DNA of 54,272 nt from a virus (lineage: Duplodnaviria > Caudoviricetes). Position 1 is the stretch's first letter. Every line of letters begins with the position of its first letter. The notes below the pieces were generated by a model. The model was not told the DNA's origin, made no database searches, and saw only the letters and a list, made by a program, of their open reading frames with translations. Positions 5,823-42,540 of this stretch are shown in pieces. The position numbers and the translations under genes are program-made. The stretch is from positions 1 through 54,272 of the IMG/VR virus record IMGVR_UViG_3300037502_000299, one strand, 5' to 3'.

Positions 5823-6845
5823 ATGGCTGACGTAAAAGATGGCGATATTGTATTTGAATATCCAGAGGATGACGAAATACCAGCAGCTAAACCTGCTGAA
5901 GAAAAAGAAGTAAAAGTTTCTGCTGAAAAAAATGAAGTTAAGGTAGAAACAAAGGCAGATGATATTGATCTTGAAATTGAAGACGATACTCCTGTTGAAG
6001 ATAAAGGCAAAGAACCTTTACCTAAAGAAAAAGTTGAAGAGCTAGAAAATGACACTTTAGAAGATTATTCTGAACGTGTTAAACAACGTATGGCTCAGCT
6101 TAAAAAAGTTTGGCATGACGAAAGACGTGCTAAAGAATCTGCTGATCGTGAAAGACAGGAAGCAATTAGGTTTGCACAACAAATTGCAGAGGAAAATAAA
6201 AAGCTTAAAACTACTTTAGAGTCAGGTGAATCAACTTATATTGAAACACTTAAAAATGCTCTTGAGAGTGAACTTGCTTTAGCTAAAGAATCTTACCGTA
6301 AAGCTTATGATACAGGCGAAACAGATAGTATAATTGAAGCACAACAGAAAATGAATGATGCTCAGTTTAGACTGTCACAAGCTAAACAATATGAGCCTAG
6401 ATTTAAAAATGCTTTACAAGAGGATAAAAATCCTGTATATATACAACAAAATGAACAACCTTCATTTAAACCAGACGATAAAGCTTTAAAATGGCAAGAA
6501 AAAAACGAATGGTTTGGTAAAGATGAAGAAATGACAAGCCTTGCATTAGGCTTACATGAGAAATTAGTTAGAAGTGGGATTAGTCCTACATCTGATGAAT
6601 ATTACCGTCGTATTGATAGTACGATGCAGAAACGATTCCCAGAACACTTTGGGGATGCAACGCTAGACGAGGAAACACCCGCCCAGCGCACAAAACCTTC
6701 GACTGTAGTTGCTCCGGCAACGCGTAGTACCGCGCCTAAAAAAGTACGATTGACGAAGACACAAGTAGCGTTAGCCAAGAAATTTGGTCTAACACCGGAA
6801 CAATATGCAAGAGAAACTTTAAAATTGGAGAACGCAAATGGATAA
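5823..6845 (+). CDS. Capsid scaffolding protein
   Basis: Acidic N-terminus, coiled coil, C-terminal helix-turn-helix LTKTQVALAKKFGLTPEQYA; upstream of the capsid genes. Confidence 0.7.
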   Translation: MADVKDGDIVFEYPEDDEIPAAKPAEEKEVKVSAEKNEVKVETKADDIDLEIEDDTPVEDKGKEPLPKEKVEELENDTLEDYSERVKQRMAQLKKVWHDERRAKESADRERQEAIRFAQQIAEENKKLKTTLESGESTYIETLKNALESELALAKESYRKAYDTGETDSIIEAQQKMNDAQFRLSQAKQYEPRFKNALQEDKNPVYIQQNEQPSFKPDDKALKWQEKNEWFGKDEEMTSLALGLHEKLVRSGISPTSDEYYRRIDSTMQKRFPEHFGDATLDEETPAQRTKPSTVVAPATRSTAPKKVRLTKTQVALAKKFGLTPEQYARETLKLENANG

Positions 6846-7287
6846 TAAAAGATTAGATCGTGAACAAGATACAAGGGATGATTTTCAAAGACCTGATAGC
6901 TGGAAACCTGCATCATTACTACCTGAGTTTAAAAAGGTACCTGGTTGGGCTTATCGTTGGATTCGTACTAGTGTTATGAACGAGGCTGATAATCTAAATG
7001 TATCCTCCAAAATGCGTGAAGGATGGGAACCCGTTAAATTAGCGGACCACCCTGAAATGAAGTTAATGGTCGACCAAAATTCCCGTTTCAAAGACGGTGT
7101 TGAAATTGGTGGATTATTACTTTGCAAGATCCCAGAAGAGTTCGTTGCACAACGTAAGGCTCACTATGCTAAACAATCACAGCAACAAGCCGATGCAGTT
7201 GACAACAGCTTTATGAAACAAAACGATCCACGTATGCCTCTTTTCTCAGAGAAGAAGTCTACAACATCGTTTGGTAAAGGTAATTAA
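6838..7287 (+). CDS. Conserved-looking phage head-module protein
   Basis: PGWAYRWIR..EGWEPV..GGLLLCKIP pattern; lies between scaffold and capsid. Confidence 0.65.
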   Translation: MDNKRLDREQDTRDDFQRPDSWKPASLLPEFKKVPGWAYRWIRTSVMNEADNLNVSSKMREGWEPVKLADHPEMKLMVDQNSRFKDGVEIGGLLLCKIPEEFVAQRKAHYAKQSQQQADAVDNSFMKQNDPRMPLFSEKKSTTSFGKGN

Positions 7288-7310
7288 TATAAACTTATAA
7301 GGAGAATAAA

Positions 7311-7934
7311 ATGGCATATCCAACCATTAACAGTCCTTACGGTTTTCAACCAGTTAATCGTTATGATGGTATTCCGTACGCCGGGGCAACTTTACAGATC
7401 CCAATTGGCGCTTCGTACAATACCCCAATCTATAACGGTTCTTCAGTTAAAATCGTACAGAACGGCACGCTTGAATTATCAGCAGCTACAACTACCGGTA
7501 CTATTATCGGCGTTGCAACTGGCTTTCAATACACTAATTCATCAGGCCAAACAGTTCAAGCTCAATACTACCCAGGTACTAGCGTTACTAACGCTATCGC
7601 TTACGTAGTTGTTGATGCATCAGCTGAATTTAAAGTATCATTAACAGTTTCAGGCGCTCCTACAGTAGTAGTTGGTGCTAATGCAACTATTGTTGGTACA
7701 AACTTAGCTGAAATTCAAAACAGTAACGGTTCAACATCAACAGGTAATTCACAAGCTTCATGTGTGATCCCTGCTAACGGTGCTGGTGCTGCTACAACAT
7801 TACCATGGAGAGTAGTTGCAGTAGTTCCAGACACAGCTTACTTGTCAGGTTCTACAGTGCTTTACCCAGAAGTACTTGTAAAAATTAACAACCCACAGTT
7901 AACTGCCCTTACTGGCGTTAATTACGTAGCTTAA
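7311..7934 (+). CDS. Putative capsid decoration/cement protein
   Basis: Beta-rich 207-aa protein, strong RBS AAGGAG, immediately before the major capsid gene. Confidence 0.6.
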   Translation: MAYPTINSPYGFQPVNRYDGIPYAGATLQIPIGASYNTPIYNGSSVKIVQNGTLELSAATTTGTIIGVATGFQYTNSSGQTVQAQYYPGTSVTNAIAYVVVDASAEFKVSLTVSGAPTVVVGANATIVGTNLAEIQNSNGSTSTGNSQASCVIPANGAGAATTLPWRVVAVVPDTAYLSGSTVLYPEVLVKINNPQLTALTGVNYVA

Positions 7935-7950
7935 CTAAGGAGAATAAAAC

Positions 7951-8868
7951 ATGGCTATTTCACGTGCACAGCTCCTAAAAGAGCTATTACCAGGACTTAA
8001 CGCGCTATTCGGTTTAGAGTACAAGCGTTATGGCGAAGAACATAAAGAAGTTTATGAAACAGAGACTTCAGAGCGTTCATTCGAAGAAGAAACAAAACTT
8101 TCAGGTTTCTCAGCAGCACCAGTCAAAAACGAAGGCACAGCAATCGCTTATGACAATGCTCAAGAAGCTTGGACTGCTCGATACAATCATCAAACTATTG
8201 CTCTTGGTTTCTCTCTAACAGAAGAAGCTGTAGAAGATAACTTGTATGATACATTATCAGCTCGTTACACAAAGGCTTTAGCTCGCGCTATGGCATACAC
8301 AAAACAAGTTAAAGCAGCTGCAGTATTAAACAATGGCTTCAACACTTCTGGTTCTTACAACGGCGGTGATGGTGTTTCATTATTTAACACAGCTCACCCA
8401 CTTGTTTCAGGCGGTACAAACAGCAACACTCAATCAACTCCAACAGACTTGAACGAAACAGCACTAGAAAACGCTGTTATTCAAATTGCTGCATGGACAG
8501 ATGAGCGTGGCCTATTGATCGCTGCTCAACCACGTAAGTTAGTAGTTCCACCAGGTAATCAATTCGTTGCAACTCGTTTGCTCGAAACTGAACTTCGTGT
8601 TTCTACAGCTGACAACGACATCAACGCTATTAAGAATAATGGTTCAATCCCAGAAGGTTACACAATTAACCACTTCTTAACAGATCCAGATGCGTACTTC
8701 TTAACAACTGATGTACCTAACGGCATGAAACACTTTGTGCGTACTCCGTTATCAACATCTATGGATGGCGACTTCGATACAGGTAACGTTCGTTACAAGG
8801 CTCGTGAGCGTTATTCATTCGGTTGGTCTGATCCTCTCGGTATGTGGGGTTCACCAGGCGCTGCTTAA
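7951..8868 (+). CDS. Major capsid protein (HK97 fold)
   Basis: MAISRAQLLKELLPGLNALFG..PRKLVVPP..RYKARERYSFGWSD; strong RBS; followed by a terminator. Confidence 0.9.
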   Translation: MAISRAQLLKELLPGLNALFGLEYKRYGEEHKEVYETETSERSFEEETKLSGFSAAPVKNEGTAIAYDNAQEAWTARYNHQTIALGFSLTEEAVEDNLYDTLSARYTKALARAMAYTKQVKAAAVLNNGFNTSGSYNGGDGVSLFNTAHPLVSGGTNSNTQSTPTDLNETALENAVIQIAAWTDERGLLIAAQPRKLVVPPGNQFVATRLLETELRVSTADNDINAIKNNGSIPEGYTINHFLTDPDAYFLTTDVPNGMKHFVRTPLSTSMDGDFDTGNVRYKARERYSFGWSDPLGMWGSPGAA

Positions 8869-8898
8869 TTGCACACTTGGTTTTAATGTACTAGGATT

Positions 8899-8925
8899 AA
8901 CCCTGCTTCGGCGGGGTTTTTCTTT
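8899..8925 (+). terminator. Rho-independent terminator after the capsid gene
   Basis: AACCCTGC-TTCG-GCGGGGTT stem with UUCG loop followed by a T-rich tract. Confidence 0.85.
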
Positions 8926-8949
8926 GCCTGCTATTCATGATTTTCTCTA

Positions 8950-9001
8950 TTTCACAGGCAAAATAAAAGCGTAATATGTGAAGCATACACACGGTGTGTA
9001 T
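8950..9001 (+). promoter_or_regulatory. Putative pqqA promoter and 5' palindrome
   Basis: TTTCAC/TTCACA (8950-8956), TAATAT (8972-8977), then perfect inverted repeat ATACACAC-G-GTGTGTAT (8985-9001). Confidence 0.4.
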
Positions 9002-9021
9002 AAAATTTTAGGAGAACTACT

Positions 9022-9093
9022 ATGTGGACAAAACCAGCTGCAACAGAAATGAGATTTGGCTTTGAAGTAACTATGTACGTAATGAACAAGTAA
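9022..9093 (+). CDS. pqqA: Pyrroloquinoline quinone precursor peptide PqqA (not in ORF track)
   Basis: Translates to MWTKPAATEMRFGFEVTMYVMNK*, with the PqqA W-x-K-P and R-x-G-F-E-V-T-x-Y (ExxxY) signature; RBS AGGAGA at 9010-9015. Confidence 0.95.
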   Translation: MWTKPAATEMRFGFEVTMYVMNK

Positions 9094-9122
9094 TGATTAT
9101 CGTAACAGATTGTTATTAAATT

Positions 9123-9144
9123 AGGGGCTTCGGCCCCTTTTTTT
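9123..9144 (+). terminator. Rho-independent terminator closing the pqqA cassette
   Basis: AGGGGC-TTCG-GCCCCT followed by a T run. Confidence 0.9.
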
Positions 9145-9145
9145 G

Positions 9146-9184
9146 TGCTATAATGCTTGCAAATAGTACGAATTCAGGTATTAT
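9146..9184 (+). promoter_or_regulatory. Promoter(s) restarting transcription after the pqqA terminator
   Basis: Extended -10 TGcTATAAT (9146-9154); also TTGCAA (9157-9162), 16 nt, TATTAT (9179-9184). Confidence 0.5.
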
Positions 9185-9192
9185 TTGGGAAT

Positions 9193-9260
9193 CCGGGTTA
9201 CCCGGTTCATTAGACTGTCCCGGCAGACGCATACAAGACTAATGAGCTTAACTTTGTATG
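9193..9260 (+). ncRNA. Candidate pseudoknotted cis-regulatory RNA leader
   Basis: GGTTCATTAG/CTAATGAGCT stem, inner CTGT/GCAG hairpin, CATACAAG/TTTGTATG pseudoknot ending next to the SD AAGGA. Confidence 0.5.
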
Positions 9261-9274
9261 AAGGAAAAAATATC

Positions 9275-9751
9275 ATGGCAATAACTACATTTAGCGGCCC
9301 AGTCCGATCACTCGCCGGTTTTATTACAGGTACAGATGGTGTTTCAACAGTTACAGCATCAACATTATCAGTAACAGCAGCTGATTATAATGGTCAAACA
9401 ATCAATTTATCACGTGCAGCAGGTATTACAGTAACTCTACCAGCAGCTACAGGTTCAAACGCTGTTTACACATTCGTAATTACAACAGCAGTTACATCTA
9501 ATAACTATGTTATTCAAGTTGCTAATGCAACAGATACTATGAATGGTTTAGCTTCAGTAGGTGGAACTACAGCTTCTGTATTTGGTACATTACCAGCTTC
9601 TGACACAATCACTATGAACGGTACAACAACAGGCGGTTTAGTTGGTTCTTATGTTCAAGTTACTGATATTGCAGCAGGTGAATACTTAGTATCTGCAGCT
9701 TTAGTAGGTTCTGGTACACCAGCAACACCATTCAGCGCAGCTGTAAGTTAA
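9275..9751 (+). CDS. Putative virion structural protein (head fibre/decoration-like); start moved to ATG 9275
   Basis: MAITTFSGPV.. Thr/Gly-rich beta protein; AAGGA RBS at 9261-9265. Confidence 0.65.
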   Translation: MAITTFSGPVRSLAGFITGTDGVSTVTASTLSVTAADYNGQTINLSRAAGITVTLPAATGSNAVYTFVITTAVTSNNYVIQVANATDTMNGLASVGGTTASVFGTLPASDTITMNGTTTGGLVGSYVQVTDIAAGEYLVSAALVGSGTPATPFSAAVS

Positions 9752-9761
9752 TTAATCACTT

Positions 9762-9780
9762 GGGGGTACTTAGCCCCCTT
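9762..9780 (+). terminator. Weak terminator-like hairpin
   Basis: GGGGGT-ACTTA-GCCCCC followed only by TTACT. Confidence 0.35.
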
Positions 9781-9802
9781 ACTAAAATAAAGGAGATTAA
9801 TT

Positions 9803-10300
9803 ATGGCAATGCAATATGATGTACAAAGTGCACACACAAATGTCAGCGCTAAGATGGTCGTAGGACGCACTAGAGTTAAAGGCATTGTTTTAGGCGGTGC
9901 AGCAGGTACTTTAAATCTATGGGATGCAACTCAAGCACCAACGGCAGTTACCTATGCTAGAAGCGCTGCCGGCGTTATTACAATTACACACAATGCTCAC
10001 GGCTTTGTAGCTGGTCAAAAAATCGGTTTAACATTTGCTGCGGGTACAGGTGGTACAGCTACTAATGGCAACTATGTAATTCTTACAGCTGCTACTAACA
10101 CATATACAGTTCAAGATATTAATACAGGTGCTATTACTGCTGGTGCAGCTGCTAACGAAAATACTCGTTGGTTGTTCTCAGTAGATAATGCAGATACTGT
10201 TCCATATAATATTATTGTTCCTGGTGAAGGCATGTTAGCTGAGAATGGTGTTTACGCACAATTATCTAGTGTTCCAAACGTAGAAATATTTTATGGCTAA
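9803..10300 (+). CDS. Putative virion structural protein
   Basis: RBS AAGGAG; beta-rich; contains a VITITHNAHGF..G.KI segment like that in the 28041 tail protein. Confidence 0.6.
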   Translation: MAMQYDVQSAHTNVSAKMVVGRTRVKGIVLGGAAGTLNLWDATQAPTAVTYARSAAGVITITHNAHGFVAGQKIGLTFAAGTGGTATNGNYVILTAATNTYTVQDINTGAITAGAAANENTRWLFSVDNADTVPYNIIVPGEGMLAENGVYAQLSSVPNVEIFYG

Positions 10301-10547
10301 AAAAGGCGTATCCTTAGCAGTCGGACGTGGTGAGAAGCTCCCTGTGTCTAAAGGCGCAGGTCTTACCGCTAAAGGACGTGCTAAATATAACCGAGCTACA
10401 GGATCAAACCTAAAAGCTCCGCAACCTGAAGGGGGCGCTCGTAAAAAATCATTCTGTGCAAGAATGTCGGGCATGCCTGGTCCAATGAAAGATGAAAAAG
10501 GTAGACCTACTCGCAAGGCTGCTTCTTTAAAAAGGTGGAAATGTTAA
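10293..10547 (+). CDS. Small basic phage protein (GLTAKGR..SFCARM..RWKC type)
   Basis: Overlaps both neighbours; motif pattern common in aquatic phage head regions. Confidence 0.7.
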   Translation: MAKKGVSLAVGRGEKLPVSKGAGLTAKGRAKYNRATGSNLKAPQPEGGARKKSFCARMSGMPGPMKDEKGRPTRKAASLKRWKC

Positions 10548-10735
10548 TGACAAAATATTTTGAAAATGTAGATGAACATACTAAACATTTAATAGATGGG
10601 GTTTCGGTGGCAACAGTTATGGGTACATTAATGAGCTGGTTACCAGCAATCGCAGCACTCTTTACTATTATATGGACTGCTATTCGTATTTACGAAACTA
10701 AAACTGTGCAAGGCTGGTTAAAAAAAGGTAAGTAA
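10547..10735 (+). CDS. Small membrane protein (holin-like); start at ATG 10547
   Basis: TAATG coupling; hydrophobic helix WLPAIAALFTIIWTAIRIY and basic C-terminus. Confidence 0.55.
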   Translation: MTKYFENVDEHTKHLIDGVSVATVMGTLMSWLPAIAALFTIIWTAIRIYETKTVQGWLKKGK

Positions 10736-10736
10736 T

Positions 10737-10958
10737 ATGAAATCTTTTATAGACAGAGTATTTAAATCAAAGCAACAAAAGCAAAAGGAATTATTAAATG
10801 AAATCACTCATAAAGAAGTTAAAGACCAAGCTACAGAAGCTATTGTCGAAGCTATCATTAAAGAAGTAAAAAAAGAAGAAGTAGTTAAGCCTAAAAAACC
10901 TAATCACTTCCCAGATTGTAATTGTTTTAAATGTTTAAGATGGAAACAAAATGCCTAG
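10737..10958 (+). CDS. Hypothetical protein with C-terminal H/CxCxxC cluster
   Basis: HFPDCNCFKC; tightly packed in the operon. Confidence 0.55.
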   Translation: MKSFIDRVFKSKQQKQKELLNEITHKEVKDQATEAIVEAIIKEVKKEEVVKPKKPNHFPDCNCFKCLRWKQNA

Positions 10959-11301
10959 TAAATCTAAGAAACAACATAATTTAATGGCAGCTGTAGCTAA
11001 TAACCCAGCCTTCGCTAAGAAAGTTGGTATTAAAAAATCAGTAGGAGAAGAGTTTATGAAAGCAGATAAAGGTAAAAAATTTAAAGGAGGCGGTATGATG
11101 GACAAGAAAGATATGGCTCAAGATAAAAAGATGGCTAAAAAAGCAGTTGGTATGCATGAAAGCCAGTTACATGGTGGTAAGAAATCTGATTTAGCTAAAC
11201 TTAAAAAAGGTGGTATGGCTAAGATGAAAAAAGGTGGTTCATGCTACGCTAAAGGCGGCGGTATTGAGAAAAAAGGTAAGACTAAAGGAAAGATGATTTA
11301 A
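10951..11301 (+). CDS. Small Lys/Gly-rich protein (KKGG / GKTKG family)
   Basis: FKGGG, LKKGG, MKKGG, YAKGG repeats; ends KGKTKGKMI. Confidence 0.75.
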   Translation: MPSKSKKQHNLMAAVANNPAFAKKVGIKKSVGEEFMKADKGKKFKGGGMMDKKDMAQDKKMAKKAVGMHESQLHGGKKSDLAKLKKGGMAKMKKGGSCYAKGGGIEKKGKTKGKMI

Positions 11302-11303
11302 TC

Positions 11304-11603
11304 ATGGGACTATTAGGCAAAAACACAGCATCAGCAACAGCGTCACCAGACGGTGGAGGTTCTTCAGAGCCATCAGGATTTTTTGGTTCAATATTAAAAG
11401 ATGCAGTTGGACAATTAAAAACTCAAGGTGGATTTGATTCTGCATTAAGTGGTACACCTAAAACTCAAGTTAATCTTAATTTAGTTGATGATAAATTTGA
11501 AGGTAAGGGTATGAAAAAAGGTGGCAAAGTGAAAGCCTCTTCGGCATCTAAACGTGCAGATGGTTGTTGTAAAAAAGGTAAAACAAAAGGAAGGATGATT
11601 TAA
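11304..11603 (+). CDS. Small Lys/Gly-rich protein (KKGG / GKTKG family)
   Basis: Ends MKKGGKVKASSASKRADGCCKKGKTKGRMI. Confidence 0.75.
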   Translation: MGLLGKNTASATASPDGGGSSEPSGFFGSILKDAVGQLKTQGGFDSALSGTPKTQVNLNLVDDKFEGKGMKKGGKVKASSASKRADGCCKKGKTKGRMI

Positions 11604-11605
11604 TC

Positions 11606-12019
11606 ATGGCTGATGCAGGAAAAAAACCTATGAAAGTAATTAAAGAAGGGGATATGTCTCCTGAAACTAAAGCTTTACCTGATGAAGTAATTAAACCACC
11701 AAAAGGAATTGGCGAGTCTGAAAAAGATATGGATCCAATACCTAAAAAAGCTGCACCTACAGGATATACCCCCAAAGATGTCAGCAGCAAAAAACCCGAA
11801 CCTACTTTTAAATCAGACGTTGATGATATAGTATCAGGAGTTAAAAAAGTTGAGGATAGATTAAATAAAGGTATAGCAAAAGCTGCAGGGAAAACGGAAA
11901 AAGGAATTTTAAATACAAAACTCAGTAAAGACTATAAAAAAGGCGGTTCAGTTTCATCAGCTTCCAAACGTGCAGATGGTATTGCTACAAAAGGCAAAAC
12001 TAGAGGAAGGATTTGCTAA
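11606..12019 (+). CDS. Small Lys/Gly-rich protein (KKGG / GKTKG family)
   Basis: Ends YKKGGSVSSASKRADGIATKGKTRGRIC. Confidence 0.75.
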   Translation: MADAGKKPMKVIKEGDMSPETKALPDEVIKPPKGIGESEKDMDPIPKKAAPTGYTPKDVSSKKPEPTFKSDVDDIVSGVKKVEDRLNKGIAKAAGKTEKGILNTKLSKDYKKGGSVSSASKRADGIATKGKTRGRIC

Positions 12020-35502: not shown

Positions 35503-38500
35503 ATGGCATTAATAGACGAACTACGCGCTAAATATCCTGACCGATATAGGACTATGACCGACAAGGAGGTAGCCGATCAACTATATAATGCTCACTATGC
35601 CACCGAAATGCCTAAGATTACTTTTTATAAGCAATTAGGTGTAGACGTTCCCGAATCAAGTTATGCTGAAATAATAGCTAGAGATATACCGTTAGCTGGT
35701 GCGCAAGGTACAGTTGGTTTATATGAAGCGGCTAAAGGTCTTACAGGGTATATTCCATTCACAAAAGGTAAAATTCCTAAAGCAATAGAAAGCGCAGAAA
35801 AATCTGTTCTTGGTGGTACATCTTCCGACTTACAACAATATCTAGAGTCCTTAAAATCTGAAGGTCAACAAATGGTATCGCAAGGTGCCGCAGAAATACA
35901 ACCTACAGGAAATATAATACAAGACACTATTGCACAACTTCAATACGCTGGACAAAACCCACAACAAATACCACAAATAATTGCGCAATCATTGCCATCT
36001 ACTTACGGAGGTGCATTGGTTGGTAGGGGTATAACTAAAACTGCTGGTAGGTTTGGTAAAGATGTTTCTCCAATTACTGCCGCTGCATCGGGGGAAGGTA
36101 CAATAGCTGCTGGTGCTGGTCTTGAGTCTATACGTCAACAAACAGAAGATAGAGAAGTTACAGGTGGACAACAAGCTATAGCCGCATTTAGTGGTTATAT
36201 GACTAATAGATTAGGTAGGCTTGGTGCTAAAGCAGCAAAATATCTAGATGCTGGTGATATAGATGTTATCTGGACACAAGGCACTACAGGTGTTACATCT
36301 GCTGCAAATCAAAAAGCGCAAAGTAAACTATTAGCTGGTCTTAAGTCAGCACTTAGCGAATCAGTATTTGAAGAACTTCCACAATCAGCGCAAGAACAAA
36401 TATCACAGAACGTAGCTCTTGGTAGACCTTGGGATGAGGGCGTTGCAGAACAAATGGCTGGGGGTATAATTGGTGGTGCAGGTGCAGGGTTTGGTTTTGG
36501 TGCATACAATCAATATAAAATAAACAAAGCAATAGAAGACATGCCTCCACCTGGAGATATAACTGCAGAACCGCCAGGCACAGATATAGAAGTACCAAAG
36601 ACAGATACTAAGAAAAATGCTCAAACAAGAAAAGAACTGTTAGACTCTATTGAAGACGAAGAAACTAGAAAGTCATTAGAAGAACTTTTAGGTAAGAAAG
36701 GACAACCAAGTGGAACTCAGCAGACAACAGCTGGAACTAGCGATGCAATATCTGGACGATCCACTGATGGAACTGCCGGAGGAGTTAAAAAACCTGTCGG
36801 AGGTGGAGTGGCTGGGGCTGCAACTGATGAACTCACAGATAAGACTGGAGAGGCAAGAAGCGACGTTGCATTAGAAAACATCACAACAAATGATGTAGGT
36901 AAACCTTTTCCAACAATAGGTCAAGCGCATAAATTCCGTAGAGATAATAAGTTACAAGATTTATATTCTGTTAAAGAATTAGATGATGGTACGATTGCTC
37001 TTGTGCCAAAGATACCAGTTACAGAACAACAACCCCCAGTAACCAAAACTAAAAAACCTGCAGTAACTAAAGAACCTGAAGTAGCTGCAGAAGAAACAGA
37101 AGAAGATATAGCAGATGAAGAAATAGGCTGGGAGAAGTTTGAAGAAACCAAACCTGATGGCACTATGACTACAGGATATAGAAGAAAACAAACTACAGCA
37201 AAAACTCCTAAATCAACTGAAGTATTAAAAACAGCCGCAGAACTTACAGAAGCTGATAAAGCTGATTTAGATCAAGAAGAGTCAGATGAAGACGCTGCAA
37301 GCCAAGCTAGAATAAATGAAGCTAATGAAAACGGATTTGATGATTTACCTGATTATGTTAAAACAGGTTCTAAATTAGCTGCTAAATCCCCAGTAGTACA
37401 GGCTAATGAATCTAATCCTAATGCAGATACTACAGTTAAAAAACAAGAAGCTAGGCGATTAGCAGTTAAACATGCTGCATTTGACCAAGCAATGGACGAG
37501 TTTGATACTGTAAGTATTGAAGACTTTGATGCAAGATTAAAAGAATTATCTGATGAGAAAAAGGCTGAAACAGGTAAAGAATATTCTATTAATAAACCTT
37601 TAGAATTTATAAAAGGCCTTACTCAAGCACAACGTTTTAGTAATTATTATAAAGAGTTTAATAAATTTTTAGGTACAAAACAATTAAAACCTAGAAGAAT
37701 TAAACAAGCAACTACTCGCGAAGACTTTTTAAAAACTCTATCTAAAGAAGAAAGAAAATTATTTAATAGAGCATATTCTAGCTATATAACTACACAAGTT
37801 AAAACAATGAAATCTGGTGTTGGGTCTGTTGATGAAACGGAATCTAATGTAGATGCGTTATATAGAAAACTACAAGCTGAAATAGAATTGGTTAAAAAGA
37901 AAAAAGGTAGCCAAGCTAAAGTAGATAAGTATAAAGCTCAGTATTTAGCAGAAAGACAAAAACTACAAAAAGTATCACAGTCTAGACAAGTTGTTGAGAA
38001 AGATACATCTGCACTATTTGATAGAGTTGCTAATTTAGAACAAGCTATTAAAGATGGTGAGAATGAAATCAAGTCTATTAAAGCTGCCAAAAAAATTAAA
38101 GATAAAGCAGTGCAAATTAAAGGTGTTCAAACACAGATTAATAAAGACAGAGCTGAATTAAAACGTGCTAAAGCAGAATTAGATATTGCCCAAAAAACTA
38201 CTACAGTACTAGGCGCTCCGGGAAGATACACAAATATAGCTGATGAAGATACTCGCGCTGCTGAAATAGTAGCTAAAGAAAATAAAAAGAATGAAATAAA
38301 AGAGACAGGAACTCCTGAAGAAGTAGCGGAAGTTCTAGATGAAGAGACCGAAGAAGAAGCTAAAAAAATAATAGCATCGGATAAAGAAAAGGCTCAAGCA
38401 AAAGCTGAAGAGAAGGCTAAAAAACAACCTAAAATTACTGTTGTTGGTAAGCTAAACATGATTGTGTCTAAGAGTATTACTCAAGGTAAGAATGCTATTG

Positions 38501-41500
38501 AGATATTGTCAGACCTGTACGATAGTAAGAATAAAGAAAAAGCTCGTAGCTACCAACGCACTGCCCTGTTGTTTAGTGAAGTATTAGATAAGCTTAAGAA
38601 AAAAGGTTATGCCTTACCTAAAGTAGTATTTGGTCCAGTACCTAATGATCGTCCTGGTATGTTTAATCCAGAAACAAATACTATTACAATTAATGATACT
38701 TCAGAAGTAGAGTACGGTAGGGTATTAGTGCACGAAACATTACATTATTTATTAGACCATATAGTAGAAGAATATCAAAAAAATCCTAATAGTAACTTAC
38801 TATCCCCATCTCAAAAAGCATATCTAGGAGCCCTAGTAGAATCATACAACTATGCTATACCGAAATTAGGTGAGCAATTTAAAGGCATGGAGTTCAAAGA
38901 GTTCCTAGCTGAAGCAGTGGAAGGCATGCAGTTTTCAATAGAATTAGGTAAATTAAAACCTATGCCTGGTCGTGTATTACCATTCTTACGACAATTAGCT
39001 AGAGACATTGCAGGTATGTTAGGATTTAGACTTGAACATAACTTGCCTGCGGTAGATAAAGGTGCACCAGCTCAAGCCTATATATTAGAAGCAGTATTAA
39101 ACGATATTGAAAGTATTCTTACAGGTGAAGATTATGTGGCACCTAATCCATTATTTAGGTCTGGTGATGTATCATTTGCTAGAAAAATAGATTTATCTGA
39201 TGATGCCGAAGAAGCTAGTAAAGTAGAAAGAACATTTGATGAGTTAGTAGATAATGATAAGAGCACCATGTTAGAACGTGGAATTAAAACTTCCATACAA
39301 AAAACAGTTGAGCTTTTCTCCAGTGGTCAAAACTTTATAGATGAAATGGCTACTCTATTTTCTAATGAGCGGTTTGTATTAGAAAGAATACAAGAAAATA
39401 TGGATAGAGCAGGGTCTATAAGCTATGCTGATGATTCATTTAATAACTTTTATGATTATATATCTACAGCTTTTGGTAAAGCACAATGGTATTTAAAACA
39501 AAAAATAGAAAATCCTAGAAAGACTTATATTAGAACTTTAGCTAATTTTGCAAATGCTAAGGGAGTATCTAATTCTAAAGCAGCTACAATATTAAAATAC
39601 TATCAAATAGCGTTTCATGCACCTGAAAGACGTATGACAAAATGGTTAATGAACGTGCCATTAGAAAAATTAAATAAGGTTAAATTTAGAAGTTCTTTAT
39701 TTGGCACTGTAAATGACACTCCAGCAAACATTAGAGAAAGAATTTTTGATACGATATCTTCTGATGTTATAGCTAAACTAGACGAGCCTCAAAGAAAATA
39801 TATTGCTGATTCATTAAGAAATGATTTAATTAGATTGGTTAATTCTAAGGGTGCTATTACTGAAACAGGATATAGTCCAGCAGGTTATAAGAAAACAAAT
39901 ATGACAGAAGCAGACTATAACGTTATTGAAGATTTAAACTTTAATGATGAGCAAGCATGTAAGAGTAAGTATATGGCTGAGTCGACTGAAATGAAAACTT
40001 TGGTACAACAATTCTTTGCTTCTAAAAAACAATTACTAGATGCTACTATAGAATTAAATAGAATGTCAGGTTACTGGAGTACTGCTACAGACGCTATTGT
40101 TGAGTTTTATGGATGGAAAAACTACTCACCATTCAAGGTTAGACCTGGAGATAAAGCAGCATCTAAATTAAACATTGAAGGTACTGCATTAGGTAATACG
40201 GGTAAAGGTTTTACAGGCGGTAGATTTGAAGGTAGTAGTGCTGATGTAGAAAACCCAGTGCATCAAGTATTGGTTGAAGCTGCGCAATCTGCTGCTAGAG
40301 CTGGTGCTGATGGGTTAATGAGATCAATTATAAATGCGGTAAATCAAGGTTATCTAAAAGGTCATATGGTAGATGCCAAGGGAATGCCTCGTAAGAAAGC
40401 TGAAATAAATAAACCTACTTATACATTCCAAGAAAGATTTACAGGAAAAGTAGATGAAGCATTACTAAAAAGACCTGATATATTATATTCTTACAACAAA
40501 GATGGTTCTATGGATTTAGTTAGAATTACTGATCCAAAACAATTAGAAGCTATCCGTAGAACTTATGCTATTAATAATGAAGGAATAATAAATAGTGTAA
40601 CGCAATTTTTAAATAAAGGTACAAGCCTCATGGGTCAAGGGCACACTAGATTAAACCCTGGATTTGGTCCTTATAACTTTGTACGTGACCTTTTAACCAA
40701 TGCTGGTATTGTATCAATGAAAGAAAACCCAGTGTTAGGGGCTAGAATTATTTCATCAGTTGCAACAGAATTAATAGCTAAAAGAGGTTTAGCTAAATCA
40801 GCTAGATTCTCATTCTTATTTCACAATAATAAAATAGATGATATTAAAAAATTGGCGGATAAAGACCAATTCTATCAATCTTTAATTGAGTATGGTGAAA
40901 ACGGTGGTAACGTTTCTGTGGTGCAAGGATTAAGTGCAGCTAGTGCTATGGAACAATTATCTAAACAATTAGATAAAAGTCTGACTTTAAAAAATAGAGA
41001 TGATGTACTTAAATATTTTGATATGTATAACTCAATGTTTGAGTTTGGTGCTCGTGTAGCAGTATATAGAGTTATGAAACGACATTTCCAAAATCAAATG
41101 GCTAAAGAATTAAATGTACCACCTAGTCAAGTAGAAAAAGCTGCAATTCAAAAAGCCGTTGCATATACAAAAAATCTAGCAAACTTTGAAGAACGTGGAT
41201 TAGCTACTAAACAATTAGGTACTTACTTTATGTTCTTTGGAGCTAGTGCTGTTGGTGCTAGACAAGCTTTAAAAGCTTTAAGTCCTGCATGGAGAAAATA
41301 TGAAGCAGTAGCTAATACCTTACCTGAAGTAGATCAAAAAGATCCAGTTAAAATGGCTAAATTTAAAAAACGTTTTATGTACCAAAAACATATGAGTAGA
41401 TTAGTAGCAGCTGCTATGATAGGTATGGGTTATAGTATATGGCATTTAATGCACATGATGGCAGGGGATGACGATGACTTAGATCAAGAAGGTAGAAATA

Positions 41501-42540
41501 AAATAGCTACAGATGACTCCCGTAGGTGGACTAGAAATGCTAGAATTTATTTAGGTTATGATACTAATACTCATAAAGATATAATGGGTAATATACCATG
41601 GGGTTTTGGTCCTAATGCATTTATGGCTTTTGGAGCACAAGTAGCAGCATATACTTCAGGTGAAGGAGTACAATTAAAAGACTTTGCTGTTAATACTCTT
41701 CATATTGCAATGGACTCTTATCTTCCTATTCCTACAACAGGTATTGATCCAGTAGAAAATACTACAGCGTTTCTTGTTGATTTAATAACACCAAGCGTAG
41801 GCAAGCCATTTATTGAATTTGCTATGAATAAAAACTCATTAGATATGCAAATTTATAGGAGTAATTATAGTAGGTATTCATCCGCTTATGCTGGTAGTGA
41901 TGTTGTGCCTAAATATTTTAAAGACGCATCTGAAACATTATTTGATGCTACCAATGGTAAAGTAGTATTATCGCCAGATCAAATGTATTTCTATGCTAAT
42001 AATTTTGCTGATGGATTAACTAAAATAGCAGAGAGTTTATATGGCGGAATAGCTGTGTTAAAAGGTGAGAAGTATTTTGATCCTGAAAAAGACCTATTTG
42101 TTTTAGATAGTTTCTTGTCTACTACTTCTAATCTTGATGCTAGACGATTCGATGTTTTAAGGAACAATATAGAACGTAAATCTAAAGTATTAGAAGATAT
42201 GAAGCTACGTAATCCAAATCAAGCATACACATTTGCTACAGTAACTAACCCTCATTTAGATGTAAAAATAAAAGTTTTAAACTACTTTGATAATAAAGCA
42301 TTAAAGCCATTAGATACGGCGGCTAATCAAATTAGAAATAATCCTTTGCTTACATCTAAAGAAAAAACTGATCTTTTATATAGAAACAAACTAGAAAAGA
42401 ATCATGTAAAAAAAGGTGTATATGACACTATAAAATCACTAGATGATTTAGGTGAAGATAGAATTAATGTTTTATTAGAAATGATTGATCAGGATGAAGC
42501 AGCGATGGACTTACGCAACGCGCCAGACTCTAACCCCTAG
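35503..42540 (+). CDS. Giant polyvalent/ejection protein with zincin metallopeptidase motif
   Basis: 2345 aa; G.FNP..TITI..LVHETLH..EFLAE zincin signature; C-terminal region with FFGASAVG and IPWGFG resembling LPD38-type domains. Confidence 0.7.
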   Translation: MALIDELRAKYPDRYRTMTDKEVADQLYNAHYATEMPKITFYKQLGVDVPESSYAEIIARDIPLAGAQGTVGLYEAAKGLTGYIPFTKGKIPKAIESAEKSVLGGTSSDLQQYLESLKSEGQQMVSQGAAEIQPTGNIIQDTIAQLQYAGQNPQQIPQIIAQSLPSTYGGALVGRGITKTAGRFGKDVSPITAAASGEGTIAAGAGLESIRQQTEDREVTGGQQAIAAFSGYMTNRLGRLGAKAAKYLDAGDIDVIWTQGTTGVTSAANQKAQSKLLAGLKSALSESVFEELPQSAQEQISQNVALGRPWDEGVAEQMAGGIIGGAGAGFGFGAYNQYKINKAIEDMPPPGDITAEPPGTDIEVPKTDTKKNAQTRKELLDSIEDEETRKSLEELLGKKGQPSGTQQTTAGTSDAISGRSTDGTAGGVKKPVGGGVAGAATDELTDKTGEARSDVALENITTNDVGKPFPTIGQAHKFRRDNKLQDLYSVKELDDGTIALVPKIPVTEQQPPVTKTKKPAVTKEPEVAAEETEEDIADEEIGWEKFEETKPDGTMTTGYRRKQTTAKTPKSTEVLKTAAELTEADKADLDQEESDEDAASQARINEANENGFDDLPDYVKTGSKLAAKSPVVQANESNPNADTTVKKQEARRLAVKHAAFDQAMDEFDTVSIEDFDARLKELSDEKKAETGKEYSINKPLEFIKGLTQAQRFSNYYKEFNKFLGTKQLKPRRIKQATTREDFLKTLSKEERKLFNRAYSSYITTQVKTMKSGVGSVDETESNVDALYRKLQAEIELVKKKKGSQAKVDKYKAQYLAERQKLQKVSQSRQVVEKDTSALFDRVANLEQAIKDGENEIKSIKAAKKIKDKAVQIKGVQTQINKDRAELKRAKAELDIAQKTTTVLGAPGRYTNIADEDTRAAEIVAKENKKNEIKETGTPEEVAEVLDEETEEEAKKIIASDKEKAQAKAEEKAKKQPKITVVGKLNMIVSKSITQGKNAIEILSDLYDSKNKEKARSYQRTALLFSEVLDKLKKKGYALPKVVFGPVPNDRPGMFNPETNTITINDTSEVEYGRVLVHETLHYLLDHIVEEYQKNPNSNLLSPSQKAYLGALVESYNYAIPKLGEQFKGMEFKEFLAEAVEGMQFSIELGKLKPMPGRVLPFLRQLARDIAGMLGFRLEHNLPAVDKGAPAQAYILEAVLNDIESILTGEDYVAPNPLFRSGDVSFARKIDLSDDAEEASKVERTFDELVDNDKSTMLERGIKTSIQKTVELFSSGQNFIDEMATLFSNERFVLERIQENMDRAGSISYADDSFNNFYDYISTAFGKAQWYLKQKIENPRKTYIRTLANFANAKGVSNSKAATILKYYQIAFHAPERRMTKWLMNVPLEKLNKVKFRSSLFGTVNDTPANIRERIFDTISSDVIAKLDEPQRKYIADSLRNDLIRLVNSKGAITETGYSPAGYKKTNMTEADYNVIEDLNFNDEQACKSKYMAESTEMKTLVQQFFASKKQLLDATIELNRMSGYWSTATDAIVEFYGWKNYSPFKVRPGDKAASKLNIEGTALGNTGKGFTGGRFEGSSADVENPVHQVLVEAAQSAARAGADGLMRSIINAVNQGYLKGHMVDAKGMPRKKAEINKPTYTFQERFTGKVDEALLKRPDILYSYNKDGSMDLVRITDPKQLEAIRRTYAINNEGIINSVTQFLNKGTSLMGQGHTRLNPGFGPYNFVRDLLTNAGIVSMKENPVLGARIISSVATELIAKRGLAKSARFSFLFHNNKIDDIKKLADKDQFYQSLIEYGENGGNVSVVQGLSAASAMEQLSKQLDKSLTLKNRDDVLKYFDMYNSMFEFGARVAVYRVMKRHFQNQMAKELNVPPSQVEKAAIQKAVAYTKNLANFEERGLATKQLGTYFMFFGASAVGARQALKALSPAWRKYEAVANTLPEVDQKDPVKMAKFKKRFMYQKHMSRLVAAAMIGMGYSIWHLMHMMAGDDDDLDQEGRNKIATDDSRRWTRNARIYLGYDTNTHKDIMGNIPWGFGPNAFMAFGAQVAAYTSGEGVQLKDFAVNTLHIAMDSYLPIPTTGIDPVENTTAFLVDLITPSVGKPFIEFAMNKNSLDMQIYRSNYSRYSSAYAGSDVVPKYFKDASETLFDATNGKVVLSPDQMYFYANNFADGLTKIAESLYGGIAVLKGEKYFDPEKDLFVLDSFLSTTSNLDARRFDVLRNNIERKSKVLEDMKLRNPNQAYTFATVTNPHLDVKIKVLNYFDNKALKPLDTAANQIRNNPLLTSKEKTDLLYRNKLEKNHVKKGVYDTIKSLDDLGEDRINVLLEMIDQDEAAMDLRNAPDSNP

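Follow-up and report, generated by a model that had tools for sequence, protein, structure and literature searches.

A virus genome from IMG/VR carries, between its capsid gene and further structural genes, a complete pqqA gene for the precursor peptide of PQQ, identical in its product to the PqqA of Methylophilaceae and separated from the rest of the pathway. In PQQ synthesis, PqqE together with PqqD cross-links a Glu and a Tyr of PqqA, and PqqB, PqqC and peptidases mature the product to PQQ; one PqqA peptide is consumed per PQQ. The window, by which we mean the whole stretch of DNA analyzed, is the entire virus record, 54,272 bases long, linear and ~86% complete as estimated by CheckV. We consider it probable that this pqqA is functional and translated, that selection maintains it in a lytic-type Methylophilaceae phage, and that it supplies the substrate of PQQ synthesis to host enzymes. 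As part of this reading, the host would be of the OM43, LD28 or Methylopumilus kind.

A PqqA gene in a phage genome

The gene is a 23-codon ORF on the plus strand, running from an ATG at 9022 to a TAA at 9091-9093, and its translation is MWTKPAATEMRFGFEVTMYVMNK. This is exactly the peptide claimed in an earlier interpretation made from the letters alone (hereafter the sequence-only reading), which had also described the AGGAGA ribosome-binding site and the EVTMY motif, both of which we find as described. In that motif E15 (9064-9066) and Y19 (9076-9078) form an intact E-x-x-x-Y, so that the two residues of PqqA that become PQQ are present in the window peptide. The assignment to PqqA, which had been proposed without a family model, survives the profile check: the Pfam model PF08042 (gathering score 21.1) aligns over 19/19 model positions and gives 42.4 bits (E 6.4e-11), and the NCBIfam equivalog TIGR02107 (cut-off 20) gives 40.4 bits. 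No other place in the record gave a PqqA match. With 23 codons and its own AGGAGA, the gene also has the form usual for PqqA, an ORF of ~20-40 aa with its own translation signals. Linkage to pqqBCDE, which is typical of PqqA, is absent here; because hosts too have orphan copies, this linkage does not define the family. ORF 9022-9093 is a genuine PqqA gene, and the match is far beyond chance.

The surroundings are those of a phage. The window encodes a large terminase (TerL), a portal, the major head protein (7951-8868), a tail fibre and virion structural proteins, together with a primase/helicase, a helicase and a DNA polymerase, and phage genes flank pqqA on both sides. Because terminase, portal, head, tail fibre and DNA polymerase genes are distributed over the two sides, we conclude that pqqA is encoded in a genuine virus genome. 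Its peptide is identical to Methylophilaceae PqqA, as is expected of an auxiliary gene in the sense of a host-derived gene of a host pathway. At the end of the structural module, a single plus-strand ORF of 2345 codons (35503-42540) may encode a giant internal virion or tail protein.

The sequence-only reading had seen no pqqBCDE in the window, and tblastn with PqqB, C, D and E agrees, returning only noise (E >= 0.14); the same queries recovered the operon in 25/120 host loci among the matches listed. No PQQ-type dehydrogenase, methanol dehydrogenase included, was found in the window, nor was any tRNA gene. No Rfam family reaches its gathering score in the window, and around the cassette there are only chance-level matches. 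Neither tyrosine integrase (PF00589) nor serine resolvase (PF00239) has a match in the window, and ~14% of the genome may be missing from it. As judged from this gene content the phage is probably of lytic type, with no sign of lysogeny seen.

The cassette and its capsid lineage

The gene is closely framed by punctuation on both sides (Table 1). In 800 bases, where 0.7 terminator-like sites would be expected, a scan found three, and the second hairpin starts 30 bases past the pqqA stop codon. A capsid relative, L350, presents the empty site: there, the capsid terminator is joined directly to sequence that corresponds to the window from ~9140 on. The stretch ~8920-9140 is therefore an insertion, and it brought its own terminator. 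Read from these junctions, pqqA is a small self-terminated cassette lodged between the terminator of the major capsid gene and the promoter of the next gene.

Table 1. The pqqA cassette and its flanks (window coordinates).
Feature	Position	Strand	Basis
Major head protein gene, directly upstream of cassette	7951..8868	+	phrog_371, E 1.4e-21
Terminator-like hairpin and T-run ending the capsid gene; left insertion border	8899..8928 (hairpin 8899-8918)	+	8-bp stem, 5 GC pairs
Weak promoter-like pair TTCACA-15 nt-TAATAT, non-canonical spacing	8951..8977	+	appears only with relaxed spacer limit
Perfect palindrome, 8+8 around one central base, just upstream of RBS	8985..9001	.	read from sequence
Shine-Dalgarno AGGAGA, 6 nt before ATG	9010..9015	+	sequence; AGGAG-type sites also precede 120 listed IMG/VR copies
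pqqA, 23-aa PQQ precursor peptide with cross-link residues E15, Y19	9022..9093	+	family models
Cassette's own intrinsic-terminator-like hairpin and T-run; right insertion border	9123..9145 (hairpin 9123-9138)	+	terminator scan
Promoter-like TTGCAA-16 nt-TATTAT of next gene; phage backbone, not cassette	9157..9184	+	kept in pqqA-less relative L350
Downstream structural-module gene	9275..9751	+	ATG 9275, in frame with ORF 9185-9751

No consensus sigma-70 promoter was found upstream of the window's pqqA by a consensus scan. The palindrome at 8985-9001 is a candidate for binding a regulator, and it is not conserved in the aligned capsid relatives. The leader of the next gene (9157-9270) is conserved in L350, which is without pqqA, and partly in L352; it contains the promoter-like site, a short GC hairpin and a conserved stretch that extends to the start codon at 9275, and it has no Rfam family match. 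A PHROG search returned no match for the gene that follows this leader. Across viral copies of pqqA, a terminator-like site lies within 100 nt after the gene in 62/121 loci, compared to 16/605 random same-strand segments, and promoter-like sites upstream are modestly enriched (37/123 loci against 77/615). By analogy, the arrangement recalls the morons of lambdoid phages, in that it would be a small, self-contained cassette with its own terminator, placed between backbone genes and absent from relatives such as L350. It is unlike them in having neither a clear consensus promoter nor a sign of lysogeny.

Relatives of the capsid protein occur in at least 600 IMG/VR stretches, from which the best 80 were used (84-98% identity); 11 of these had too little downstream sequence and were left out. 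An HMM search of these best 80 of at least 600 found pqqA after the capsid gene in 6/69 judgeable relatives, and in the other 63/69 no pqqA lies up to 2.5 kb from the capsid gene. We then mapped the trait on a quick capsid tree of 80 rows, in which 17 carry pqqA, 13 of them brought in from the pqqA scan, and the remaining 63 do not. Carriage requires four changes on this tree, of which well-supported branches force only one, compared to a mean of 15.6 changes for shuffled labels, and 0/500 shuffles were as low as four. Carriage is thus clustered, and the cassette is therefore an accessory trait of certain sub-lineages, probably the ones that infect Methylophilaceae. The tree is compatible with a single origin of the cassette in the window's capsid group.

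If the cassette were a recently captured and functionally neutral passenger, a hitch-hiking fragment of host DNA, then a short gene, lying in an intergenic hot spot behind the terminator of the capsid gene and missing from most close capsid relatives, is what one would find. However, such a passenger is at odds with the clustering of carriage on the capsid tree, and also with the intact ORF and Shine-Dalgarno site in 120/120 listed loci of our first IMG/VR scan, across neighbours that have diverged to less than 50% identity. The existence of phage-enriched alleles and the presence of pqqA in every complete methylophage isolate, both described below, point the same way. We regard neutral carriage as the least probable of the explanations weighed here.

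Orphan pqqA in cultured phages, uncultured viruses and hosts

The sequence-only reading had proposed a search of phage databases. In a tblastn search of 50,697 phage records, the peptide matched 12. Identity to the window's peptide is 100% in Manatee Spring podovirus, 96% in Venkman and P19250A, 91% in MEP301, 87% in MEP401 and MEP402, and 77% in four Melnitz records. Six of these phages, P19250A, Venkman, MEP301, MEP401, MEP402 and Melnitz, are all of the complete OM43/LD28 phages named in the literature searched, and pqqA is thus present in 6/6 fully sequenced OM43/LD28 isolates, which span Kyanoviridae, Zobellviridae and unclassified lineages. A seventh isolate, HIM624-A, has a partial genome of 23.5 kb, and it is absent among the 12 matched records. 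The PF08042 model scored 37-43 bits in each of five isolates (all but MEP401), in Manatee Spring podovirus and in the capsid relative L346; the MEP401 gene was identified by its tblastn match alone.

These genes have largely escaped annotation, so that for GenBank isolates the sequence-only reading's remark that ORF calling misses the gene holds true. GenBank shows no feature under the pqqA match in Venkman, P19250A, MEP301, MEP401 and MEP402, and in Melnitz and Manatee Spring podovirus the only feature annotated at pqqA is a 'hypothetical protein' on the opposite strand. These opposite-strand calls, at 2961-3056 of L126 (Melnitz) and 2067-2195 of L127 (Manatee Spring podovirus), overlap pqqA and are probably mis-calls made in place of a gene of 23-24 codons.

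The cultured methylophages are like the window in having an orphan pqqA, with peptides 77-96% identical to the window's. They differ from it in lineage and in insertion site: the window's pqqA follows the capsid gene on the same strand, whereas in Venkman, MEP301 and Manatee Spring virus the gene is antisense and adjoins a recombination module, in P19250A it lies at a convergent junction and in Melnitz it stands just before tRNA-Leu. PqqE had no match in the complete genomes of five isolates. A PqqC model had no match in the isolates either, which says little, as it found none in any control genome. Two records named 'Acinetobacter phage MD-2021a' (L128, CAKLQF020000010.1, and CAKLQH020000055.1) were set aside; the ppk gene and the entire pqqABCDE operon on them indicate pieces of a bacterial chromosome that were filed as phage.

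Uncultured viruses extend this carriage considerably. The pattern W-x-K-P-x3-E-x-R-x-G-x-E-V-T-x-Y, run as degenerate DNA, matched at least 120 IMG/VR loci, and in 120/120 among the matches listed the ORF is complete, at 23-25 aa, with an AGGAG-type site upstream. When patterns for Ser6 and Thr4 were added, the number of different loci of the Glu9 (Methylophilaceae) type rose to at least 334. PqqB-E were found in the examined flanks of 0/334 of these viral loci among the matches listed; the same test on host loci among the matches listed found them in 25/120 and 23/120. The neighbours of pqqA among the listed loci include YqaJ exonuclease (34), Sak (25), Erf (19) and SSB (16), as well as endolysins, DnaB-type helicase and, in 14 loci, the window-type major head protein. 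The gene is antisense to its neighbours in 36/125 viral loci among the matches listed. In L061, a Glu9-type locus of the T4-like group, pqqA is convergent with a gp23-like major head gene.

A pattern for a second, Asp9 type matched at least 120 further viral contigs (L665-L784), with 58 peptide variants and a locus GC of 29-60%. Only 1/120 of these loci among the matches listed has a PqqB match, and 93/120 listed loci share proteins with other pqqA phage loci. Representatives scanned from the most-shared clusters are for the most part T4-like (gp23-like head, scaffold, prohead protease, tail tube, UvsY). The hosts of Asp9-type viruses need not be methylotrophs. With this type included, pqqA occurs on at least 454 IMG/VR contigs. 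These scans together therefore place orphan viral pqqA far more widely than in one lake or one host family.

On the host side, a stricter pattern was run against 185,579 species genomes, and the titles listed are mostly Methylophilaceae, including the genera Methylophilus, Methylotenera, Methylobacillus, Methylovorus, Novimethylophilus and Ca. Methylopumilus. Among the matches listed, the window's exact peptide ranks first both in hosts (59/131 hits) and in viruses (29/120 loci). The resemblance to Methylophilaceae PqqA that had been proposed in the sequence-only reading is thus a full identity with 59 Methylophilaceae genome hits among those listed. In nucleotides, the best match among hosts lies in a Ca. 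Methylopumilus MAG and reaches 92% over 87 nt. This nucleotide homology covers the Shine-Dalgarno site and the ORF only (~85-100 nt) and stops at the Shine-Dalgarno site and at the stop codon.

PqqA matches were present in 151/151 sampled Methylophilaceae genomes, at 1-12 each, these being matches and not strict copy numbers. Three matches are the rule among 28 Methylophilaceae genomes of 1.2-1.4 Mb (21 genomes); five others have two, and there is one genome each with a single match and with four. Such multiple matches suggest that peptide dosage matters. In three genomes of this size (G113, G119 and G089), two matches lie ~200 bases apart on the same strand, as a tandem duplication. Host pqqA stood without nearby PqqB-E in 95/120 and 97/120 loci among the matches listed. 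The idea that these host orphans reside in prophages was rejected, as only 7/120 host loci had hits to phage neighbour proteins, and these were weak (E 1e-5 to 1e-7). Chromosomal Methylophilaceae PqqA and the window's gene thus agree in the peptide itself, in length, in the Shine-Dalgarno site and in E-x-x-x-Y, and most host copies are orphans too; unlike them, the window's copy is phage-borne, between capsid and structural genes, and is without host flanks.

Selection on the peptide and its proposed use in infection

Among the matches listed, 121 viral copies comprise 107 distinct nucleotide versions. Their entropy at codon positions 1/2/3 is 0.31/0.22/0.91, and the pooled pN/pS is 0.154 with a pS of 0.62, estimates that are biased downward, and thus inflate the constraint, as the search patterns fixed 10 residues including E and Y. 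E15 and Y19 are, as this pattern demands, invariant in 107/107 versions. Residues that the pattern left free are nevertheless kept: F14 in 107/107, N22 in 104/107 and M10 in 102/107, each with synonymous variation. In addition, in 284 phage pairs whose neighbouring YqaJ proteins are less than 50% identical, the median identity of PqqA is 95%. Together, these codon and residue patterns show purifying selection at the level of the peptide, with synonymous sites near saturation.

This pattern bears on whether the element might work as DNA and not as a peptide, that is, as a homology patch to dispersed host pqqA that serves attP-like integration or recombination by phage annealing proteins. In many phages pqqA does lie beside a recombination module (the YqaJ, Sak and Erf loci counted above), often antisense, and hosts do carry several dispersed copies. 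However, synonymous sites near saturation beneath a conserved peptide are the opposite of what a site of DNA identity needs. Moreover, the window showed neither a tyrosine integrase nor a serine resolvase, and identity to hosts reaches at best the 92% over 87 nt given above, short of the exact shared core that, together with an integrase, marks an attP. Nor are the host pqqA loci related prophage junctions, given the few weak hits among them. A role at the DNA level therefore strikes us as very improbable.

We also find alleles that are enriched in the phage copies. Ser6 is present in 36/125 viral loci and 0/131 host hits, both among the matches listed, and on a Thr4 (WTTP) background in 39/120 viral and 3/123 host copies, again among the matches listed. 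A pattern specific for Ser6 matched at least 120 viral contigs and two stretches in 185,579 species genomes, a phage/host ratio that is overstated because IMG/VR is redundant and the genome set holds one genome per species, although its direction is still clear. Phage copies also vary more than host copies at leader residues 6-8. From these comparisons it appears clear that phage pqqA has its own history and is not simply re-sampled from hosts. Thr4 was itself considered as a phage allele and rejected, since at least 120 host stretches carry it. Both host contigs that carry Ser6 have a true chromosomal setting, with ResB, cytochrome c, PolA and an ABC transporter. These MAG contigs (L249 and L250) are the only stretches in the genome collection with the Ser6 (TCN) allele, and they could be phage-to-host transfers.

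The same alleles raise the question of whether the peptide is made for some other end. It might occupy or redirect host PqqD/PqqE, provide PQQ for other quinoproteins or for redox protection, or, as a signal, change how the host regulates methylotrophy. The enrichment of Ser6 in phages on two backgrounds, with leader residues 6-8 variable, could mean altered handling, and orphan pqqA of the Asp9 type occurs in at least 120 further viral contigs whose hosts need not be methylotrophs. The window's peptide, however, is letter for letter the commonest host PqqA, which makes a decoy or dominant-negative function unlikely for this copy, and the cross-link residues and leader are strongly conserved, as expected of a true substrate. 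We consider a different role unlikely overall, and more possible for the variant alleles.

We return, then, to the supply of PQQ substrate to host enzymes. In an infected cell, host PqqD and PqqE would take the phage peptide and cross-link Glu15 and Tyr19, after which host PqqB, PqqC and peptidases would mature the cross-linked peptide to PQQ. Processing by the host is expected because the phage peptide is identical to host PqqA. The phage-driven extra copy would keep or raise the supply of PQQ for periplasmic methanol dehydrogenase, and hence energy, and would do so over a long infection during which transcription by the host may fall off. The OM43 phages MEP401 and MEP402 reportedly have latent periods of 17-20 h (PMC10580990). 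We infer that the gene is expressed in infection, that host enzymes process its product and that the phage benefits.

Several considerations weigh against phage-driven supply. First, an intact terminator lies between the capsid gene and pqqA, and the window has no consensus promoter. Second, hosts already have several pqqA copies, and as long as their transcription holds up, one more may contribute little. Third, by our own reasoning, PQQ and methanol dehydrogenase may be stable enough to need no new synthesis. The 63/69 close capsid relatives without the gene near the capsid, and the merely modest enrichment of promoter-like sites, also count on this side. Contigs of four RNA libraries (X2, X5, X7 and X8), at a likeness of at least 90%, cover the head genes and the bin containing pqqA, although contigs cannot show transcripts. 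One contig of 500 nt in X7 spans 9065-9303. Most contigs that match pqqA diverge just past its stop codon, with seven loose ends at 9094 in X7, and therefore stem from other pqqA loci. The 24 sequencing runs contained just 10-19% of the words from 6000-12000.

Viral pqqA, together with the substrate-supply reading, is already published, and the window's copy is not the first of its kind; the sequence-only reading had allowed that surveys might already mention virus-borne pqqA. Coutinho et al., 2020 (PMC7678222) describe a viral PqqA in the Lake Baikal population VP_266, which infects methylotrophs, and read it as an auxiliary gene that supports methanol dehydrogenase; they also cite the established chemistry of the PQQ pathway. 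Compared by this description, VP_266 and the window are alike as viruses of freshwater methylotrophs with a PqqA precursor. The Baikal populations are described as also having a viral methanol dehydrogenase (PMC7678222), whereas the window has none. A reservoir study of 2026 lists viral pqqA, pqqE and pqqD as phosphate-solubilising auxiliary genes (PMC13188868). The MEP301, MEP401/402 and Venkman papers do not contain 'pqq' in their main texts, although supplements may list the gene, and the Melnitz paper uses the word only for a component of a medium. Within the literature searched, the breadth of carriage appears to be unreported: pqqA in all complete isolates and on at least 454 contigs, its orphan status and a phage-enriched allele.

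The psbA gene of cyanophages codes for a complete membrane protein; both its expression and the benefit it brings have been documented. By analogy, the window's phage would likewise carry only the fast-consumed part of a host energy system and leave the host to give the rest, with the difference that its product is a predicted sacrificial substrate of 23 aa. More tentatively, orphan pqqA might be a hallmark auxiliary gene of methylotroph phages, and more widely of the phages of PQQ producers, as psbA marks cyanophages. Peptide supply would then be the step in maintaining PQQ and methanol dehydrogenase that is most sensitive to host shut-off, the gene would have been taken up repeatedly, and phage alleles such as Ser6 would be tuned for processing in the infected cell. 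The settings that this proposal would unite are capsid-adjacent podovirus-like, recombination-module, Zobellviridae and T4-like, on the IMG/VR contigs counted above. If it is true, then pqqA could serve as a simple host-prediction marker for uncultured phages.

At 72 bases, pqqA would be among the smallest auxiliary metabolic genes known. It is in practice invisible to standard gene callers, and it is unannotated in six cultured methylophage genomes. As cultures of hosts and phages already exist, the substrate-supply idea is testable now. OM43, LD28 and Methylopumilus are abundant methylotrophs of coasts and lakes, and they gain energy through PQQ-dependent methanol dehydrogenase. If their phages top up the consumable part of PQQ synthesis, infections would alter how methanol is turned over in surface waters.
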